From a virus, in IMG/VR virus record IMGVR_UViG_3300027733_000033: a DNA stretch of 64,000 nt. The stretch is one strand, 5' to 3'. Made by a program: the position numbers and the translations under genes. The notes under the pieces are model-generated. The model saw only the letters and a list, made by a program, of their open reading frames with translations, was not told the DNA's origin and made no database searches. Positions 4,598 to 43,655 of this stretch are shown here, piece after piece; position 1 is the stretch's first letter, and the number at the start of each line of letters is the position of its first letter.

Positions 4598-4990
4598 TTA
4601 GTTATCTCTAACAACGCGAACATAACAAAAAGCCGTTTTGCCATAGTAATCCTTAATACCACTATCAAATTCATATTGCCAAGAAGAACGATAGTCAAAT
4701 TCTGTACTAGACCAATAACCTTCTTTTTCAAAATCATTTTCAGATTTATAAATTAAATCTAATTCTTCTATAGTAGGTAAACGCCAGCCGTCACCTAACA
4801 ATTCTACATATTCAATCGCATCATACCAAGTTGATGGTTCTTCTGTTCTTTTATTCGCAACTTCAAAGGGTAAAGAGGATTTTGGTTTAACGCCTTTTAA
4901 TGCTTCTATTCTAACAAAAAACTCATCACTCAAAGGCTTAACCGCAGATGATTCCAATAACGTCAAAAATGCTAATTCAGTTTCATTCAT
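4598..4990 (-). CDS. DUF1566/Lcl-type (C-type-lectin fold) domain protein
   Basis: W.DA..Y...GWRLPT.EEL, YWSSTE, VRVVR motifs; likely start MNETE. Confidence 0.75.
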   Translation of the reverse strand: MNETELAFLTLLESSAVKPLSDEFFVRIEALKGVKPKSSLPFEVANKRTEEPSTWYDAIEYVELLGDGWRLPTIEELDLIYKSENDFEKEGYWSSTEFDYRSSWQYEFDSGIKDYYGKTAFCYVRVVRDN

Positions 4991-5000
4991 AATATAATTC

Positions 5001-5159
5001 CTATTCTTGGCAATCTTGAGCGCTACGGGTTGACCAACCGCGACCACGTTCTTCTTTCATACGAACCATTTGGTCAATGACTTCAGGGTCTTTAAGCAAT
5101 TTTTCAAATTCAACTTGAGGATCGTACATTTCGCCGGTAACTCTATCTTTAACTAACAT
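5001..5159 (-). CDS. small early protein, 52 aa (MLVKDRVTGEMYDPQVEFEKLLKDPEVIDQMVRMKEE...), not in ORF track
   Basis: Manual translation; first gene after a class-1 cassette; SD GGAGTG. Confidence 0.65.
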   Translation of the reverse strand: MLVKDRVTGEMYDPQVEFEKLLKDPEVIDQMVRMKEERGRGWSTRSAQDCQE

Positions 5160-5287: not shown

Positions 5288-5608
5288 TTACAAATCTACT
5301 GGGATAAGTTTGAATTTAAACTTTTCCTTTGAGTAAATTTTAATTCTTTCATCAAAGTGATTCAACGTATGATTGCGATGACTTTTACCCGTAGATAAAT
5401 TATCAGACAAGTCATAAAGATTACAGACAGTTTTTCCTTCGTTTAGCCGTAAGCCGCGCCCAATACTTTGTAAGACGCGAATCATAGATTTACTAGGAGA
5501 AGCAAATATGATATTATCAATAGAAGGAATTGATACCCCTGTTGATAAAACCCCGTAAGATGCTACGATAATATCGCCTTTGATGTTTTCAATTTTTGTT
5601 GGTTGCAT
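5288..5608 (-). CDS. uvsW: UvsW helicase, C-terminal fragment (motifs V-VI)
   Basis: IIVASYGVLSTGVSI...RVLQSIGRGLR...NHTLNHFDERIKIYSKEKF matches the C-terminus of T4-type UvsW. Confidence 0.9.
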   Translation of the reverse strand: MQPTKIENIKGDIIVASYGVLSTGVSIPSIDNIIFASPSKSMIRVLQSIGRGLRLNEGKTVCNLYDLSDNLSTGKSHRNHTLNHFDERIKIYSKEKFKFKLIPVDL

Positions 5609-5610
5609 AA

Positions 5611-5649
5611 TAATCTCCGTTGAAGTATTACCTTATTTAACGGAGATTA
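5611..5649 (-). promoter_or_regulatory. SD-occluding hairpin with late-promoter TAAATA in the loop (uvsW-C leader)
   Basis: Perfect 11-bp IR TAATCTCCGTT/AACGGAGATTA; GGAG in the 3' arm; TAAATA at 5634-5639. Confidence 0.75.
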
Positions 5650-5802
5650 AGATTTCTTTTTAGTCAGACATTCTTTTCCTGGTCCAATGGGACACTCGTC
5701 AGGATCTTCGAGTGTCTCATCACTTTTCAGTTGAACATCTTCTTGTTTACATTTTTTGGCTTCCGCTAAGGTTAACGCCTTATAATCAAGAAAAGATAAC
5801 AT
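5647..5802 (-). CDS. small putative internal head protein, 51 aa (MLSFLDYKALTLAE-AKKCKQED...), not in ORF track
   Basis: Manual translation; N-terminus parallels the two upstream genes and the T4 capsid-targeting sequence. Confidence 0.65.
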   Translation of the reverse strand: MLSFLDYKALTLAEAKKCKQEDVQLKSDETLEDPDECPIGPGKECLTKKKS

Positions 5803-5804
5803 AA

Positions 5805-6812
5805 CTATTTTTTAGCCTTAGAATCACACGATTCTTCACATTCTTCGTCATCTTCTTCTTCATCTTCATCTTCATCTTCTTCTTCAGCGTCATCTTCCTT
5901 TACAGGTTTCATAGCGCATTTTTCATCTAACTTAGCAAGCAAACTTTCCAAAACTTCGTTTTCTTCTTTGGTTAGTTTACCGGCGGCTGTTTTTTTCTTT
6001 GCACGAAGTAATTTGAAATCTTCAGCATCAAGTTCGCCGCTACCGTTAGCGTCTAATTTTTTATGGTTTGGGTGAGCAAACTTTTCATCAAGGTCTTCTT
6101 TAACAGCTTTGATTTGCTTTTTGCTTGCAGTAATGGCTTCATTATCGCCATGGAAAATTGTATAAGTAGGATCCGTATCACCTTTGAATTTTCTACTAAT
6201 TTCTCCAATATGACCGGTAATTCCTGCACCAGTGCCTTTATGAATAGTTACCTTATTTCCAATTTTATGTGCTTCATCAAGGTCTTCTTTAACATGACCA
6301 CCAGCTGGTTGTCTATAATATTTGACAGTACCTTTTTTGGCATCATGAATTGCAACTAATCCTGGAAGATTATGTTCAACTTGACCTCCGTCGTTTGCAA
6401 CCATTGCACTTGATTTTTTACCTAGACTATCAGTTTTTGATAGAACTTCTCTAAAATTCTTAGTACCATGTTCTTTTTCGTGATCAAGTCTCTTTTTAAG
6501 AATTGCATCATGTTCATCTTTACTAATCTGAACAAACCCCTTTGGTTTGCTAAATGTAGCAGCTTCATTCAGAGAAGATTCATCTAATATAACTTTATCA
6601 TCTATTGCAATAGATTTTAATTTTTTTGCAATAGATTCTGCTGATTTATTGTCGTTATGTTTTTTATAATATTCATAATCGCCAATATCCGCCATTATAT
6701 TGTCATGGTTAGAATAATGTTTTTTAATCGCAAGAAGCTGTTCTTTACTGAGTCCTTCATTCAGAGAAGATTCGGCTAATACCTTTTCTTTGAATTGAGC
6801 AAATGTTAACAT
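5805..6812 (-). CDS. putative internal head polyprotein B (targeting-like N-terminus, LNE/LDE linkers, acidic tail)
   Basis: MLTFAQFKEKVLAE; ESSLNE x2, VKEDLDE x2; KOW-like and EF-hand-like (LDANGSGELDAEDF) segments. Confidence 0.75.
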   Translation of the reverse strand: MLTFAQFKEKVLAESSLNEGLSKEQLLAIKKHYSNHDNIMADIGDYEYYKKHNDNKSAESIAKKLKSIAIDDKVILDESSLNEAATFSKPKGFVQISKDEHDAILKKRLDHEKEHGTKNFREVLSKTDSLGKKSSAMVANDGGQVEHNLPGLVAIHDAKKGTVKYYRQPAGGHVKEDLDEAHKIGNKVTIHKGTGAGITGHIGEISRKFKGDTDPTYTIFHGDNEAITASKKQIKAVKEDLDEKFAHPNHKKLDANGSGELDAEDFKLLRAKKKTAAGKLTKEENEVLESLLAKLDEKCAMKPVKEDDAEEEDEDEDEEEDDEECEESCDSKAKK

Positions 6813-6813
6813 C

Positions 6814-7611
6814 TTAATCCTCTAATTTAGCTAATAGGCTTTCTAAAACTTCGACTTCTTCTTTAGTCAATTTTTTATCAAATTTAGACGGGCGGCTTTT
6901 CAATGCTTGATCTTCTTCCCAGTCTTTTTGGCTTACATAATGTTTAGATTTTTCGTCAGCTTTGCCATTGTATTTTTTGTCAAATTTAGAAGGACGACTT
7001 TTTAAAGCTTGGTCTTCTTCCCAATCTTTTTGGTTAACGTGAACTTCGTCTAAAGATTCTAATGAATATTCTATAACATCATAGCCTTCTTTAACACCTT
7101 TGACTTCAGATACTTTGTATTTGATGCCATAATATTTTTTTTCGCCAGGAGACAATCCTTTGTTTAAACGTTTAGCATGAGCGGCGGCATCTTCTTTGGT
7201 TTCATGAGTTTTAACATGAGTTGGTCCACCACTTCCGATAGAACCACCATGTCTATGAACAGCAAACGCTTCATCTAATTCTTCTTCGTCTAATTTAGCT
7301 AATAGGCTTTCTAAAACTTCAATTTCTTCTTTTTGAAGTTTTTTGTAAGCAACATTCATACCTTTAACTCTTTTGGCTTTAGTTGCTCTAGCTTTTTCTT
7401 CATCAGATTCGCCGCTTTTAATTTTACTAGCATTAAAACTGTTAAGACCTGCTCTTTGTTTTCTAGCAGCTCCTTCAATATCTCTTTGTGCATGAAACGC
7501 GCTGTCCGCAGATTTTTTCATGTAAGAACCAAGCGTACCTTTAGATAATTCGTCTAATTGCTCTACTGATTCTGCTAATACCGCTTCCTTGAATTCATTG
7601 TAAGATAGCAT
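6814..7611 (-). CDS. putative internal head polyprotein A
   Basis: Start MLSYNEFKEAVLAE at 7611 with AAGGA SD; LDE linkers; KEExEVLESLLAKL x2; QKDWEEDQALKSRPSKFDKK x2. Confidence 0.75.
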   Translation of the reverse strand: MLSYNEFKEAVLAESVEQLDELSKGTLGSYMKKSADSAFHAQRDIEGAARKQRAGLNSFNASKIKSGESDEEKARATKAKRVKGMNVAYKKLQKEEIEVLESLLAKLDEEELDEAFAVHRHGGSIGSGGPTHVKTHETKEDAAAHAKRLNKGLSPGEKKYYGIKYKVSEVKGVKEGYDVIEYSLESLDEVHVNQKDWEEDQALKSRPSKFDKKYNGKADEKSKHYVSQKDWEEDQALKSRPSKFDKKLTKEEVEVLESLLAKLED

Positions 7612-8080
7612 CTTTTTTTCCTTTCTTTGGTTTGATGATTTGTGGTTTAACGTATCCCTCAGGGAAATGCGGCATAGGGAAAAACCCTGCTTCAACTATT
7701 TTCTCAAGAGTGATGTTTGGATAATCAGTTTCAAGAATCTGATCTTTTACTAATACTAACACCCGCGCTTCGTCTTTATGCATATTCTCGAGAGTCTGAA
7801 TAAACAAAATTTCTCTACGTGCACTTTTAACAGCGGGATTACAAAATTTCTCTAATCTTTTAGCTTCATAGGTTAAATTCGTTGGAGTCGTACCAATTGG
7901 TGATACGTTCTCTTTATAAGGACATTCCCCGCGTGGAAGTAAGAATAATGCTTTTGGGATATAACCATAGCCAAAAATAAATTTTAAGGCGTTATTATCT
8001 AAGTGTTGCTTCAAGGCTGCTATAGTATCTTTAGCAGAATTAATGTCTTTCAAAATCTCTGGGATAGTTTGTTGGCTCAT
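7595..8080 (-). CDS. conserved T4-like hypothetical protein
   Basis: LPRGECPYK...RREILFIQTLENMHKDEA.VLVLVKD pattern recalled from ORFs next to rnh in T4-like genomes. Confidence 0.65.
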   Translation of the reverse strand: MSQQTIPEILKDINSAKDTIAALKQHLDNNALKFIFGYGYIPKALFLLPRGECPYKENVSPIGTTPTNLTYEAKRLEKFCNPAVKSARREILFIQTLENMHKDEARVLVLVKDQILETDYPNITLEKIVEAGFFPMPHFPEGYVKPQIIKPKKGKKDAILQ

Positions 8081-8106: not shown

Positions 8107-8115
8107 TTATTTAGT
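8107..8115 (-). promoter_or_regulatory. T4-type late promoter (ACTAAATAA)
   Basis: Same (c/a)TAAATA motif precedes gp13, gp18 and gp22 in this window. Confidence 0.7.
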
Positions 8116-21731: not shown

Positions 21732-21908
21732 TTAAAGAGTAACAACCATATAGCGCATACCGTAGTATGATTTTTCACCAGGAGTCAGCATTTTATTCCA
21801 GTCTTTTGCCCGTTCCTTTGCTTCTTCTTTAGTTTCAAAAATGAATAAGATATTATCTTTACCACTTTTTGAACCGATACTGCCGCCTTTCAAATATATA
21901 CCAAACAT
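21732..21908 (-). CDS. small early protein, homologous to a module of polyprotein A
   Basis: GGSIGS...ETKE.A...AK..NK.L.PGEK.YYG shared with 7087-7269. Confidence 0.8.
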   Translation of the reverse strand: MFGIYLKGGSIGSKSGKDNILFIFETKEEAKERAKDWNKMLTPGEKSYYGMRYMVVTL

Positions 21909-22112: not shown

Positions 22113-22454
22113 TTAATAATCGCTGTAATTGCCACTAGATATTCTTGGCCAAGGCTCATCATCTTTAATCGCTTGAGCTAAATCAAACGCATACTTTTTG
22201 GCTGTTGCTAATTTAGAAAACACCCAACTTTCTTTATCGCCAACTTTCTTAAATGATTCTGGCTGTCCTTCATTCACCGACCATTCATTAAATCTTGTTC
22301 TATAAATATCAACAACTGAAGAATCAATCCCTAAACTATTTTTCTCAATAGAAATACGATACCAATCTGTATTAACTTTTCTGATTTTAAGCGGCGCTTC
22401 TTTTTTAGGTTTAGCCGCTTCATTTAAATTTTTGAATTCGTTATAACTTAACAT
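22113..22454 (-). CDS. putative internal head protein with targeting-like N-terminus
   Basis: MLSYNEFKNLNE-AAK; both TAAATA (22483-22488) and a sigma70-like promoter (~22497-22530) upstream. Confidence 0.7.
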   Translation of the reverse strand: MLSYNEFKNLNEAAKPKKEAPLKIRKVNTDWYRISIEKNSLGIDSSVVDIYRTRFNEWSVNEGQPESFKKVGDKESWVFSKLATAKKYAFDLAQAIKDDEPWPRISSGNYSDY

Positions 22455-37381: not shown

Positions 37382-38728
37382 CTACATAATGTTGCGTACA
37401 CGAACAACACGATAGAAATAGTTTTTAGCTGCATATAAGCCAGTGTTACCAGAACCAGCATCCAATGTGCAGAATGGGTTAGCAGTGATACCATAACGTG
37501 TAGCAAAACCAATTTTTGGTTGGAACGTGTTAGGATCAGAAGCTCTCATTAATTGCAATGGAATATATGGGCAGTAGAAAATACCGGCGTCAAACGCGCT
37601 TGTACCTTTATAACCAACAACGAAGTATTGTTCGTTGCTCAAGTTACTTGAATAAGGATCGATGAATACTTTATAACGACCGTTCAATACACCAGCATAA
37701 GTTGTAGATGTATCGTCAACGTTTAAGTTAGTGTTCAAAGCAGGAGCATAATCTAATGCGCCAGCCATCGCTAAAGCTGAAGCAACGTCAGCTGAAGTGA
37801 TAATGAAGTTACCACGACCACGACGAGTCAATTGACCAATCGCATTAGCTTCACGTTCAATTTGGAACAATAAGCCTTTGAATTTTTCAACTGACCAACG
37901 ACCATTTGAATCTGTATCTAAGTCGAAGATGCCAGCAGTAGTTGTACCGTTTTGTGCACCTGGAAGAGCAGAAAGATAAACAGTACGGATAACTTCACGG
38001 TTAATCTCAGCAAGAATTTCTGTGCTTAAGATGTTAACCAATTCAGACTCAGCATCCAAGCCGTGTACTGATTGAAGATCTTGTGCTAATTCATTTGTAT
38101 ATTCAGCTTTCAACGCACGTGATTTAGCAATAACGTGAGTTTTTTCGATAGAGAACGCCATTTCGTTGAAAGTAGCGCCGCCGCTAGAACCTAAAGCTTC
38201 TTTTGTAGCTGTAGACATAGCAGTGCCAGTATTATAACTAGCAGCACCAGGATAAGTACCAGTTTGGTCGCCGTTTACTGGAGTGCCAGTACCGTCAAAC
38301 AACGCATTAGTAGCGCCGGCGAATTCTGTGTTAGCTTCGTTATAAAGCGCTTCTGTGCCGTTTTGTGAACCGTAACGTGATTTCATCGCGAAGATCAAAC
38401 CAGTAGGTTGAGTCATAGGTTGAACGCCGCAAATATCATAAGCAATAAGTTGTGGCATTGAACGACGAACCAAAGAAATCAAGATAGGATCGTAACCAGA
38501 AACAGTACCAGTACCCGCGCCTGTACCACCTAAAGCGATACCAGTACCGCCGGCATTAGCAGGAGCTGCTTCATTAAGCATACCGCTTGATTGTGTGCGC
38601 ATATCATTTTCTTGGTTTTCCAATAATACCGCTGTTACTTCACGACGATATTTATCTTTGATTTCTGGCATTGCAGAATGCTCAAGGATAGGATTCCATT
38701 TTTTTAATAATTCAGGACGTGTAGACAT
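37382..38728 (-). CDS. 23: major capsid protein
   Basis: LISLVRR.MP.LIAYDICGVQPM..PTGLIFAM, SRALKAEY..ELAQDL, EINRE, FYCPY, FQPKIGF.TRYG. Confidence 0.98.
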   Translation of the reverse strand: MSTRPELLKKWNPILEHSAMPEIKDKYRREVTAVLLENQENDMRTQSSGMLNEAAPANAGGTGIALGGTGAGTGTVSGYDPILISLVRRSMPQLIAYDICGVQPMTQPTGLIFAMKSRYGSQNGTEALYNEANTEFAGATNALFDGTGTPVNGDQTGTYPGAASYNTGTAMSTATKEALGSSGGATFNEMAFSIEKTHVIAKSRALKAEYTNELAQDLQSVHGLDAESELVNILSTEILAEINREVIRTVYLSALPGAQNGTTTAGIFDLDTDSNGRWSVEKFKGLLFQIEREANAIGQLTRRGRGNFIITSADVASALAMAGALDYAPALNTNLNVDDTSTTYAGVLNGRYKVFIDPYSSNLSNEQYFVVGYKGTSAFDAGIFYCPYIPLQLMRASDPNTFQPKIGFATRYGITANPFCTLDAGSGNTGLYAAKNYFYRVVRVRNIM

Positions 38729-39622: not shown

Positions 39623-40273
39623 CTATTTTACATTTCTAAGAAATTGTTCAAAAGATTCAACGCAAACCCGTTTAAGATCCTTTGAAGATGCAGATAAAAT
39701 AGCCTGTTTAGTTTGTTCAGCATACATAGGTTGATAATGTCCGTTAATCAAAACCCATTCAGCATTTTCCATAATACCGTTAACCCAACAATCTATACCA
39801 GACGGCTCAGACACGATGTCAATAGTTCTTAAAAAGAAATCCGGTTGAACTTGGTTAACACCGTTAACCTGTTTCAGACTACCAATCCCACGAGTTGAAA
39901 CACCTAACTTAATCCCTTCTTTTAAAAGCGCCGCCGCTATAGCTCCTTGTGGCATCGATTCTAAAATCTTAGCTTTCCCATAAACATCATTTTTACCCTC
40001 AAATCTTAAATCGGTAATTTTATGAGAAATTCTATCAGGGTTAACCGTCATAGTATCGGGATGACCCAACTCACCAGTTGAACGGTTTTCTTTAATTAAA
40101 GACTGGAAGTTATTAACTTCACGGTTCATAGTGTCCGCTTCGTAAACTCTTCCGTTTCTATTAGTTACGCCGGCTTGAGCAAAAACACCCTCAATATAAT
40201 AACTTTTTTGCTTATCAGCACCTTCTAAAATGCTGTACGAAACACTTTCAGACAAATCAGTAAATAATTTCAT
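39623..40273 (-). CDS. 21: prohead protease
   Basis: YIEGVF.Q....NRNGRVY, GELGHP, LGVSTRG.GSL, DIV.EPS; start MKLFTD. Confidence 0.95.
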   Translation of the reverse strand: MKLFTDLSESVSYSILEGADKQKSYYIEGVFAQAGVTNRNGRVYEADTMNREVNNFQSLIKENRSTGELGHPDTMTVNPDRISHKITDLRFEGKNDVYGKAKILESMPQGAIAAALLKEGIKLGVSTRGIGSLKQVNGVNQVQPDFFLRTIDIVSEPSGIDCWVNGIMENAEWVLINGHYQPMYAEQTKQAILSASSKDLKRVCVESFEQFLRNVK

Positions 40274-40705: not shown

Positions 40706-40858
40706 TTATTCTTCCGTATCAATCACTAAATTTTTAGCAATATTTTGTTTAAGGTGTTCAAGATTATCTTGAATTTTGTCTGCCATAATAGCATTAAAGG
40801 TTTCTTGGATTAAATCCACATTACCTTGCTCAATGGCTTCTAGTAACTCATTGTTCAT
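40706..40858 (-). CDS. small prohead core protein (gp67-like position)
   Basis: MNNELLEAIEQGN...F.AIMADKI...LE..K..IA pattern right after the portal. Confidence 0.65.
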   Translation of the reverse strand: MNNELLEAIEQGNVDLIQETFNAIMADKIQDNLEHLKQNIAKNLVIDTEE

Positions 40859-43655
40859 TTTGTGTATCCTGTGTTGTTTGTTGCGTATTATCTTCAGTAG
40901 ATTGGTCAGATGTTTGCTGTTCAGCATTAGCCTGCAAAGTTGAATCTTCCTTGTTTTCTTTATCTATCTGTTTAATTTCTTCTTCAGTTTGATGTAATAC
41001 GTTTTTGCGTATCCAATCAACAGAGTAATATTTACCTACATATGGGTCAATTAATTGTAGAGTTTGAATTCTTCCTTGAATAATCTCATTATCTTTTAAT
41101 TCAGCATAATGGTTATCTTCCGCGAACTCAAAATACAAAATTCGTTCAAGTTCTTCCCAGTCATCAGAACTGACAATACCTTTACCGATCGTTTGGACTC
41201 TTAATAAATCAATAAACAGAGCAGTAAATTTATGTCTTAATCGACCAATAAATTTAGCAAACTTAACTTCGTCTCTTGATATTTCAGAAGAACGCCCTAT
41301 ATTAAACCCAGATTCTGGAGTTAATCTTGAAGCAGGAACATTCAAAGATTTGTAAAGTTTATTTTGGAAAAACACAACATCGTCAATTTGACCTAACGAT
41401 TGTCCACCTGGAAGGGTAACAATTTCTGTGCCTTTAGAGTTCATCACAAAAATGCCTGAAGATAAAGCAAAATTGTGATAATCGTGATGTATATGCTGTT
41501 CATCGATAGTTAACGTACCGACATCAATTGTATCCGTTCTAGTTACAACTTTTAATACCTTATGATTATTTAAGGATTTTGCTTTGTACGAACGGCGTTT
41601 TCCAACTTCATCAAAATTTCTAATGACAAAATCTGAAATTGAATCATACCCTTGTTCAAACAATGCTCTACTTAAAGATTTTTTGCTTGATAAGTTAGGG
41701 TAAATAGAACTGGCAATTTCAACAATTTCTGAGTTTTTTATATTTGGATAATATGATTGTTTGATTGACTCAACCAACACATTAAAATCATAACTTTTGC
41801 ATAAAGAAGAAAATGCTTCGTTACGGTTAGCTAAATTCTTTTTCCATTTTTCATTAAATTCAGTTTCTGATAAAATTTCTTTATCTATTTTACGTTTTTC
41901 AGAAGCAACAGAACCAATCAAAGGCATTTCTTTGGTAAATCCTGGAGACCATTTTTTAAGATATTCTTCTTTTGATAAAATAAGTTTATCTGCATTTCTT
42001 GATTCAGTTATATGTTCTCTTCCGAGTTTTAAACCTTTCCAAACATTTTCACATTCTGCATTAAACTTAGAAATCTCTTCTTTGCGAGCTAAACCATTTT
42101 CAGTTAAAAAGAAGGCTTTACCTGATTCAGACAGTTTAAGTTTCCATTCATCAACCTTTTCTGTCGTTCTCCAATGAGTAGAATATCCAGAATGCAATTT
42201 AAAATGGTCATCTTTATCCATAATAACCAAATTAGATGGATTATTATTGAATCTGTTAAAATCTATATGGTGGACAACTTCATTTTTGACTAAATTTCTT
42301 TCGGCAAACGAAGATACCATTTTATGAGTAGTAATCCATTTGTTGGATTCATTATCAAAAACATAATTGTAATCTTTATTTTCATACAATACACGTTTTT
42401 CTACATCACAAGGCATCAATGATATGCCAGCAGATAAATCTTTAGCTTCTACCTTTAAGCCATTTCTTAAGATAAATTTATGGTCTGGGGTACACGTTAC
42501 GATTTGACCGTTGTCTAGATAAACATCAACAATTGTCGCATCATTTCGAGTAACACCTGCCCAAGAAATTAATCCAGGAACAACTTTACCGGTAGGTGAA
42601 ACAGAATAGACCCAGTTTTCTTTTCCTGCATTATGCTCAACTATGAGTTGACCTAATTCTACATCTCTGCCATCTAAAAGTTTTATTTTAGTCGATAAAT
42701 CAAAACAGCCGTCTCTCCGTGGCATCCAATAATCTTCAATCATTGAAGGAGATTTGCGATCCTCGCTTATTTCTCCAGTCGTTGAGTTATAGACAAGTTT
42801 ATTTCTAAACCTTGCCATAGTATCTTGAACATATTGGTCAGCCTTAATTTTAGGTAAAGAACCAACATCAATATAAAACACACGGCGTTCTGGTGCGCGG
42901 GTATAACGGTAGATAATCATTGCGTCTTCAGCCATTTTAAGCTGATTGACCAATTTGACACATTTATGCAGATAACTCTTAGCCAATCCAGTATTAGAAT
43001 CAATTAAACCGGAATTAACATAAATTACAGAATCTGTTGAGAGTTTGATACCTTGGTTTGTAGTAGAAGTAAACCCTTTATCGTTGTAAAGATAATAAGA
43101 ATCACCATCAACGTGAACATCATTCCCTGATGCGTCTTTTACCTTTTTAACTTCTTTAATTTTACGAATTTTTCTTGGGTCGATATACCGGACTTCAACA
43201 ATCCCATTTTTCAGATTATCTTTATCAAGTACAATATGGAAATACATTCTTCCATCAATGTACCATTGTCTAAAGAAATCATACCCTTTTTTATTGAAGT
43301 CAAGAATGCTTAATATGCCATTAAATTCATCTCTAATTTTATTTTTAATCCCTTCAGAGTATTTAACCCCGTCCAGATTAATAGAAACTGGAGATTTAAT
43401 GCCATCAAACGTAATTGCTTCATTCGTAATATCATCAATAGCAGATGAACAATCAGGATAATCAGCAGCAATTCTATACTGTCTGATTAACTGATTTTCG
43501 TCTTTAACAACGCCGTCTAAGTCTAAGGCTAGACCATAAGCAGAATAAGCGCTTATGATCGAGCCGTCGTCATTAGATGGAGGAACAATCGATTCAATTT
43601 TTTTCTTAGATTTATCTTCTTTTTTACCGATAGTAAATCCGAATATTCCAGCCAT
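40848..43655 (-). CDS. 20: portal vertex protein with intein
   Basis: WYIDGR, RYIDPRKI, RAPERRVFYIDVG.LPK.KA, EDYWMPRR, TEI.TLPGG, LNVP.SRL, RDEVKF. Confidence 0.96.
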   Translation of the reverse strand: MAGIFGFTIGKKEDKSKKKIESIVPPSNDDGSIISAYSAYGLALDLDGVVKDENQLIRQYRIAADYPDCSSAIDDITNEAITFDGIKSPVSINLDGVKYSEGIKNKIRDEFNGILSILDFNKKGYDFFRQWYIDGRMYFHIVLDKDNLKNGIVEVRYIDPRKIRKIKEVKKVKDASGNDVHVDGDSYYLYNDKGFTSTTNQGIKLSTDSVIYVNSGLIDSNTGLAKSYLHKCVKLVNQLKMAEDAMIIYRYTRAPERRVFYIDVGSLPKIKADQYVQDTMARFRNKLVYNSTTGEISEDRKSPSMIEDYWMPRRDGCFDLSTKIKLLDGRDVELGQLIVEHNAGKENWVYSVSPTGKVVPGLISWAGVTRNDATIVDVYLDNGQIVTCTPDHKFILRNGLKVEAKDLSAGISLMPCDVEKRVLYENKDYNYVFDNESNKWITTHKMVSSFAERNLVKNEVVHHIDFNRFNNNPSNLVIMDKDDHFKLHSGYSTHWRTTEKVDEWKLKLSESGKAFFLTENGLARKEEISKFNAECENVWKGLKLGREHITESRNADKLILSKEEYLKKWSPGFTKEMPLIGSVASEKRKIDKEILSETEFNEKWKKNLANRNEAFSSLCKSYDFNVLVESIKQSYYPNIKNSEIVEIASSIYPNLSSKKSLSRALFEQGYDSISDFVIRNFDEVGKRRSYKAKSLNNHKVLKVVTRTDTIDVGTLTIDEQHIHHDYHNFALSSGIFVMNSKGTEIVTLPGGQSLGQIDDVVFFQNKLYKSLNVPASRLTPESGFNIGRSSEISRDEVKFAKFIGRLRHKFTALFIDLLRVQTIGKGIVSSDDWEELERILYFEFAEDNHYAELKDNEIIQGRIQTLQLIDPYVGKYYSVDWIRKNVLHQTEEEIKQIDKENKEDSTLQANAEQQTSDQSTEDNTQQTTQDTQNEQ
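41439..42707 (-). mobile_element. 423-aa intein with HNH endonuclease domain
   Basis: G|CFDLSTKI start, TPDH block B, VVHHIDFNRFNNNPSNL HNH, HNFAL..GIFVMN|S end. Confidence 0.93.

Follow-up and report, generated by a model that had tools for sequence, protein, structure and literature searches.

What is encoded by the three consecutive minus-strand genes, here called A, B and C, at positions 5647-7611 of the virus record IMGVR_UViG_3300027733_000033 (IMG/VR), and what would a phage gain from several small modules strung together behind one short leader? The classical example of protein delivery along with phage DNA is the set of internal proteins of phage T4, one of which, IPI*, blocks a restriction system. 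The window, that is, the whole stretch of 64,000 nucleotides (nt) that was analysed, originated from a T4-like myovirus, whose gp23 shared ~62% identity with the major capsid proteins of T4-like phages of Pelagibacter, Methylophilales and cyanobacteria. Since near-identical DNA was contained in the lake-water metagenomes of many studies, the source was regarded as a freshwater phage. Shuffling of modules at the linkers of genes A and B was observed and is practically certain. That these are capsid-targeted chains, cut by the prohead protease and reshuffled by recombination, is the overall best explanation and a probable one. The genes and their parts are listed below, in which the borders within gene B were the rearrangement breakpoints relative to L004, a related locus.

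6814..7611, minus strand: gene A, 265 amino acids (aa), composed of leader, A1, A2 and A3.
7611-7570, minus strand: leader of gene A, residues 1-14.
7569-7270, minus strand: unit A1 of gene A with linkers, predicted helical, residues 15-114.
7269-7045, minus strand: module A2 of gene A, residues 115-189.
7044-6817, minus strand: A3 of gene A, residues 190-265, containing an internal tandem repeat with 34-residue spacing.
5805..6812, minus strand: gene B, 335 aa, in the order leader-M1-M2-M3-M4-tail.
6812-6771, minus strand: leader of gene B.
6755-6564, minus strand: M1 of gene B.
6563-6273, minus strand: M2 of gene B.
6272-6084, minus strand: M3 of gene B.
6083-5922, minus strand: M4 of gene B.
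5921-5808, minus strand: acidic Cys-bearing tail of gene B.
5647..5802, minus strand: gene C, 51 aa, a 14-residue leader and a 37-residue Cys-bearing peptide.

The capsid-targeting sequence of T4 is MKTYQEFIAE (PMC8442874). Targeting is determined mainly by its residues 4 and 7 and processing by residues 8 and 10, and the protease gp21 cleaves after L/I-x-E (PMC9026906). All three open reading frames (ORFs) were present with the near-identical 14-residue N-termini that had been quoted in the original prediction, which shared Met1, Ser/Thr3, Tyr/Phe4, Glu/Gln6 (Asp in gene C) and Phe/Tyr7 and ended with L-A-E at residues 12-14. A regular-expression scan of all six frames matched the leader pattern in genes A, B and C only and missed a fourth gene, whose first eight residues were the same as those of the three leaders and whose L-N-E site was located earlier, at residues 10-12.

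22113..22454, minus strand: fourth gene with a leader, 12 residues long with LNE at its end, which is followed by a single domain of ~100 aa.

The T4 targeting determinants, Y/F at position 4 and F/Y at position 7, were thus present in all four genes of the window, and all leader ends matched the gp21 site in sequence. The search for relatives of the fourth gene gave close homologues only. Relatives of the other genes (L, relative loci; P, relative proteins) were collected from searches of 1.8 and 5.8 billion metagenomic proteins, and the T4-like leader type was found at the start of 50 of 135, some being almost identical to that of T4, e.g. MKTFQEFIEE. A protease of the corresponding type was encoded in the window, and the matching site expected in gp23 was found.

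39623..40273, minus strand: prohead protease of the gp21 type, the presumed cutting enzyme (PF03420, Peptidase_S77, E 3e-29).
38570..38581, minus strand: candidate gp23 maturation site, MLNE then Ala, occupying gp23 residues 50-54 and preceding the Pfam Gp23 domain.

In P0041, P0042, P0045, P0048, P0054, P0063 and P0069, the T4-like leader before the same modules was replaced by a second conserved, helix-like N-terminus, ~25 residues long with L-[DN]-E at its end, which may be another targeting sequence.

The joints between modules were analyzed with 44 copies of M3 drawn from diverse phages. Directly before the module start, [LIVM]-x-E was detected in 42 of them, and in the remaining two it was shifted by one residue, compared to a background rate of 2.6% per position. 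Glu occupied P1 in 42/44 and Ala occupied P1' in 39/44; in T4, processing is prevented when Asp takes the place of Glu at P1. In the stand-alone proteins P0097 (74 aa) and L025 (78 aa), and likewise in P0051 and L006-L010, the same module start directly followed the x-x-E of the N-terminal leader, so the internal joints are positionally equivalent to the leader cleavage site. Genes A, B and C together contained 14 [LI]-x-E sites, of which 13 lay at a leader end or a module border, and most of these borders were also homology or rearrangement breakpoints in relatives. Inside modules a single [LI]-x-E was seen versus 5.4 expected by shuffling (P 0.02), a test that is partly circular because the borders were set at those sites; weight was placed on the homology breakpoints instead. 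The segments between the linkers had been described as mostly basic, which held for four predicted pieces (net charges +5.9, +2.3, +1.2 and +1.2) but not for the rest, which were neutral or acidic, the gene B tail reaching -15.

Related chains were also located among head genes. In L028, L029 and L031/L032, M3-containing chains of 352-883 residues were encoded between the portal and prohead-protease genes; the chain of L016 followed the protease gene at a distance of a few kb, within the head region, and in L005 an A2-like module was part of a protein encoded beside the protease. Other relative loci retained the rnh neighbourhood of the window. By comparison, the leader determinants, the equivalence of the joints and the placement of relatives between portal and protease make the prediction of capsid-targeted polyproteins cut at L-x-E well supported. 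In two further relatives (L026:5424-9008 and L019:428-1993) a cytidylyltransferase-like domain (PF01467) stood directly behind a T4-like leader, and the chains headed by it were at least ~520 and 1194 residues long.

The linkers were examined at the DNA level, where they had been claimed to be identical. An exact 19-mer was repeated at 6563-6581 and 6755-6773 and an exact 22-mer at 6084-6105 and 6273-6294, while the copies of a third, 65-nt repeat (6812-6876 and 7280-7344) were 85% alike and exact in a long core, in agreement with the claim. By estimate, the chance expectation of an exact repeated 19-mer in 2.1 kb is ~1e-5. A recent duplication or conversion is indicated by the near identity of the linker copies in gene A. 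Gene B contained a third, older copy of the EVLESLLAKLDE linker, only 69% alike in DNA, and compared to the two copies of gene A it encoded the same peptide with 6 synonymous and 0 non-synonymous changes, so the linker peptide itself is under selection.

Compared to close relatives, the order and number of modules differed. More than eight architectures were built from the same modules at 60-100% identity, including L-M1-M3-M4, L-M3-M1-M4, L-M2-new module-M4 (L, leader) and the gene A leader followed by M1-M4, and several more were found behind the second leader type. L004, the flanks of which were 90-94% identical to and collinear with the window, contained [L-M2] + [L-M3-M2-M1-M4], i.e. a reordered gene B plus an extra leader-plus-module gene, and the DNA breakpoints relative to it (6760, 6588/6587, 6281/6277 and 6088/6084) were all within the linker repeats. 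One segment was missing from part of the natural variants.

6273..6578, minus strand: segment of 306 nt, in frame, comprising M2 and one linker copy, the segment that these variants lack.

Lake contigs of the runs X14 and X16 joined position 6272 to 6579, and an undeleted contig was also contained in X14; both were RNA-library contigs covering the genes, which are no proof of transcription, DNA being possibly present. The deletion form matched the protein P0038. In a contig from another lake, M1 was situated between a type-2 leader and the start of M4. As had been anticipated, the gain, loss and reordering of modules takes place at the linker repeats.

Pieces of A and B recurred in many combinations in a large family, every member of which was unannotated, and unit A1 was repeated in tandem in relatives. 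The ratio of non-synonymous to synonymous substitution (dN/dS) was 0.05-0.58 for every module, which shows purifying selection, and the segments differed in their synonymous divergence from L004 (0.11-0.55), a sign of a mosaic history. Gene C was conserved in L001 and L004 with a dN/dS of 0.08. The AlphaFold2 (AF2) models of A and B had a predicted template-modelling score (pTM) of 0.25-0.29 and a mean predicted local distance difference test (pLDDT) of ~61-63; no fixed arrangement between modules was modelled, and four of the five internal joints were in low-confidence stretches, those of gene A at 109-112 and 173-193. The model of M3 was poor, which is probably due to permuted relatives being combined in one alignment. 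Foldseek searches of the AF2 models against PDB and BFVD returned nothing at E <= 0.001, and neither the PDB sequence search nor ESM Atlas gave a usable match for the modules. With Pfam, nothing above the cut-off was obtained for genes A, B and C, including no PF25623, and the Pfam and PHROGs matches of the modules were sub-threshold or of unknown function (among them a weak EF-hand on M4 and phrog_26930). One module was detected a second time in the window, behind a sigma-70-like promoter (TTTACT-N17-TATAAT).

21732..21908, minus strand: leaderless stand-alone copy of A2, 27/54 residues identical (50%), E 3e-14.

Two further features of the small pieces were observed. M4 (5922-6083, minus strand) contained an EF-hand-like loop with sub-threshold Pfam EF-hand matches (E 0.02-0.04), which was the most widely recurring M4 piece in relatives and often stood immediately after the leader. 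The gene B tail (5808-5921) and mature gene C (5650-5760) shared a pattern of Lys-Cys near the start, an acidic run, two Cys and a Lys-rich end; both were strongly conserved (dN/dS 0.05-0.08), and they may be paralogous Cys-bearing peptides.

Based on these results, genes A, B and C and the gene at 22454-22113 would encode internal head proteins of this freshwater T4-like myovirus. The T4-type leader on each would bind the prohead core, A and B would be chains of independently folding modules of 6-11 kDa connected by acidic linkers ending in L-x-E, and the gp21-type prohead protease would cleave off the leader and cut at each linker. The small proteins released would stay in the head with the DNA and probably enter the cell with it. 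Since the linkers repeat at the DNA level, homologous recombination at the linker-coding repeats would delete, duplicate and reorder modules in frame, and the cargo set would therefore differ between co-occurring strains. Targeting, cleavage, head retention, ejection and module function are the parts of this explanation that we infer. Head targeting and cutting are rather likely. Retention, ejection and a host-directed role, which are suggested by the putatively early free copy of A2, the enzyme domains of relatives and the variability between strains, are put forward tentatively. A bolder proposal, with a chance below even, is a cassette array at the protein level, in which a single capsid-address tag would load a series of unrelated small effectors to be cut apart by the head protease. 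The linkers with the protease sites would serve as recombination handles as well, and each strain of a lake population would thus inject its own, rapidly reshuffled set of proteins for host takeover or anti-defence before phage genes are expressed.

Several points weigh against this explanation. Only the 50 family members mentioned above fit the loose leader pattern, some other ORFs being truncated, and the candidate cut site of the leader lies four residues later than that of T4. Genes A, B and C are ~32 kb distant from the head cluster in the window. The joint M3|M4 was placed within a helix by AF2, and L-x-E is a short motif in proteins rich in Glu and Leu. Lastly, no module matched a known fold or family in Pfam, PHROGs, Foldseek, PDB or ESM Atlas, so an effector role has no support from homology.

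The alternative that survives best, although unlikely, is that the chains are accessory proteins of the prohead core or scaffold like gp22, gp67 and gp68, which would be directed to the core and cleaved by the protease into peptides that would be mostly expelled or remain as DNA counter-ions with no function in the next host. The relatives between portal and protease occupy the gp67/gp68 slot, and A1 was predicted helical and occurred in tandem in relatives. T4 core proteins likewise carry many L/I-x-E sites per chain, at which they are cut, and the fragments leave the head (PMC9026906; PMC7411985). However, the core proteins are conserved assembly parts, whereas the chains described here consist of separately conserved small domains and vary in module number and order among strains that are 90-97% identical, which is a poor fit with a scaffold that determines size. 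The phage already possesses a gp22-type scaffold gene (PF25623, E 2.7e-48), a family to which A, B and C gave no match. In addition, a leaderless gene for A2 follows a sigma-70-like promoter, and in some relatives the leader is succeeded by a cytidylyltransferase-like enzyme domain.

Still less probable is that A and B remain uncleaved as internal or structural proteins of the beads-on-a-string type, with the linkers as flexible spacers and L-x-E as a structural element or a by-product of a recombining repeat. The conservation of the repeats as DNA and the joint modelled as a helix would agree with this. But hydrophobic-x-Glu was retained (42/44 directly, 2/44 shifted by one) across phages with unrelated linker DNA, the same module start was located directly behind the leader in stand-alone proteins, and the older linker copy kept its peptide through 6 synonymous changes. 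Finally, it is very improbable that the products are not virion-associated but cytoplasmic late in infection, the N-terminus being a translation or regulatory element or a recombination handle. In its favour, the genes adjoin rnh and a uvsW fragment rather than head genes, and 47 nt of the leader regions of A and B, with the ribosome-binding site among them, are 74% alike. Against it, conservation of the leader is seen in the peptide, which keeps its aromatic residues 4 and 7 in distant phages and agrees with the T4 tag defined by experiment, and relatives are located in head-gene clusters.

The capsid-targeted chains can be compared with several known systems. Like T4 IPI, IPII, IPIII and Alt, they possess a short leader with aromatic residues 4 and 7 and an L/I-x-E end, and both phages encode a gp21-type protease and a gp22-type scaffold. 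The cargo of T4 is also small and diverse, and its genes are hypervariable between related phages (PMC3012670, PMC9026906). In T4, however, each leader carries one cargo and is cut once (PMC8442874), whereas the chains of the window place several unrelated modules behind one leader with internal sites between them and vary by in-frame shuffling within one gene; no sequence similarity was found between the T4 cargo proteins and the modules. The inner-body or ejection proteins of phiKZ, 201phi2-1 and SPN3US are head proteins of giant phages that are cut after Glu in a short motif by a gp21-related protease, some of them at several sites, and that are ejected into the host (PMC9026906; PMC7411985). 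They differ from the present chains in the motif (S/A-x-E or A-x-E), in that the extra sites mainly remove propeptides, and in lineage, and exchangeable module arrays have not been described for them. Neither this motif nor a phiKZ-like head gene set was seen here: P3 at the M3 joints was L, I, M or V in 42/44, and gp23 was T4-like. The promoter-stem-loop (PeSL) cassettes of T4-like phages (PMC4122927) also use short conserved repeats as recombination handles that shuffle variable genes; they are positioned between genes and shuffle whole genes, whereas the handle in the window is a coding linker and the modules are within one frame. The targeting-sequence/gp21 system and multi-site processing in giant phages are already known. 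In the literature on T4-like phages, searched mostly outside subscription journals, neither multi-module chains behind one leader nor in-frame shuffling at protease-site linkers was found.

Relatives in cultured phages were sought by blastn and tblastn against 50,697 records. No match was obtained with the region, with genes A and B, with the M3+M4 part or with the L028 chain. The L030 chain was the only query that matched a cultured phage, namely gp064 of Caulobacter phage Cr30 (YP_009098822, annotated hypothetical), a chain of 682 aa adjoining a cytidyltransferase gene (L042:2629-3435). Cr30 gp064 resembled the present chains in its A1-like units and its repeated ...LNE / ...INE linkers, and differed in that the identity was ~30% and restricted to A1-type units, that the short N-terminus was another one, and that M1-M4 were not contained in it.

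The surroundings of the genes were also inspected. The original prediction had placed them downstream of a TAAATA late promoter; the motif exists, but the first gene behind it is a DUF6433 gene and not A.

8108..8113, minus strand: TAAATA, resembling a late promoter and preceding the DUF6433 gene by 33 nt, a motif match alone.
7595..8080, minus strand: DUF6433 gene, first of the unit (PF20025, E 1.2e-21; phrog_461, function unknown), its 3' end overlapping gene A by 17 nt.
5611..5649, minus strand: stable hairpin directly after the gene C stop (-14.2 kcal/mol, z -3.85).

Because TAAATA precedes the DUF6433 gene, the end of which overlaps gene A, the unit was taken to be DUF6433-A-B-C. This minus-strand unit was flanked by rnh (9042-8143) and by a C-terminal fragment of uvsW (5608-5288), and the linkage of DUF6433 to the cargo genes was kept in close relatives only. 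The motif at 8108..8113 was the only TAAATA of the unit itself. Three other genes were preceded by TAAATA, gp22 at 36 nt, gp23 at 42 nt and a presumed tail gene at 50 nt (start 46811; identity by assumption), and the late-type motif common to the unit, gp22 and gp23 was counted in favour of capsid-targeted chains, with which it is consistent. Past gene C, the hairpin contained another TAAATA in its loop and the GGAG of the next gene in its 3' arm, and it did not qualify as a canonical terminator. That next gene (5288-5649, minus strand) encoded a 106-aa Helicase_C fragment, the UvsW C-terminus, whose GGAG ribosome-binding site is the 3' arm of the hairpin, and the ORF at 4598-5047 (minus strand) contained an Lcl C-terminal domain (PF07603, E 3e-11). 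In L004 a different arrangement was present downstream of the cargo genes. A T4-type portal (gp20) was likewise encoded in the window (40848-43655, minus strand, 935 aa). Its Portal_T4 match was split in two, and weak sub-threshold Intein_splicing and HNH_3 matches lay between the halves, at residues ~332-738, which suggests that the portal gene is interrupted by an intein carrying a homing endonuclease.

Such chains are widespread in uncultured T4-like phages, where all of them are annotated as hypothetical. If they are cut apart in the head, the repertoire of pre-made proteins injected by phages would far exceed what single-gene annotation indicates, and phages would have a simple in-frame means of swapping injected cargo among strains. 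The grammar of leader plus linker would then allow candidate injected effectors to be recognised in metagenomes by a sequence rule, and it could guide the design of constructs that load multiple proteins into T4-type capsids. With the related chain of Cr30, the idea can be put to the test in a laboratory host.

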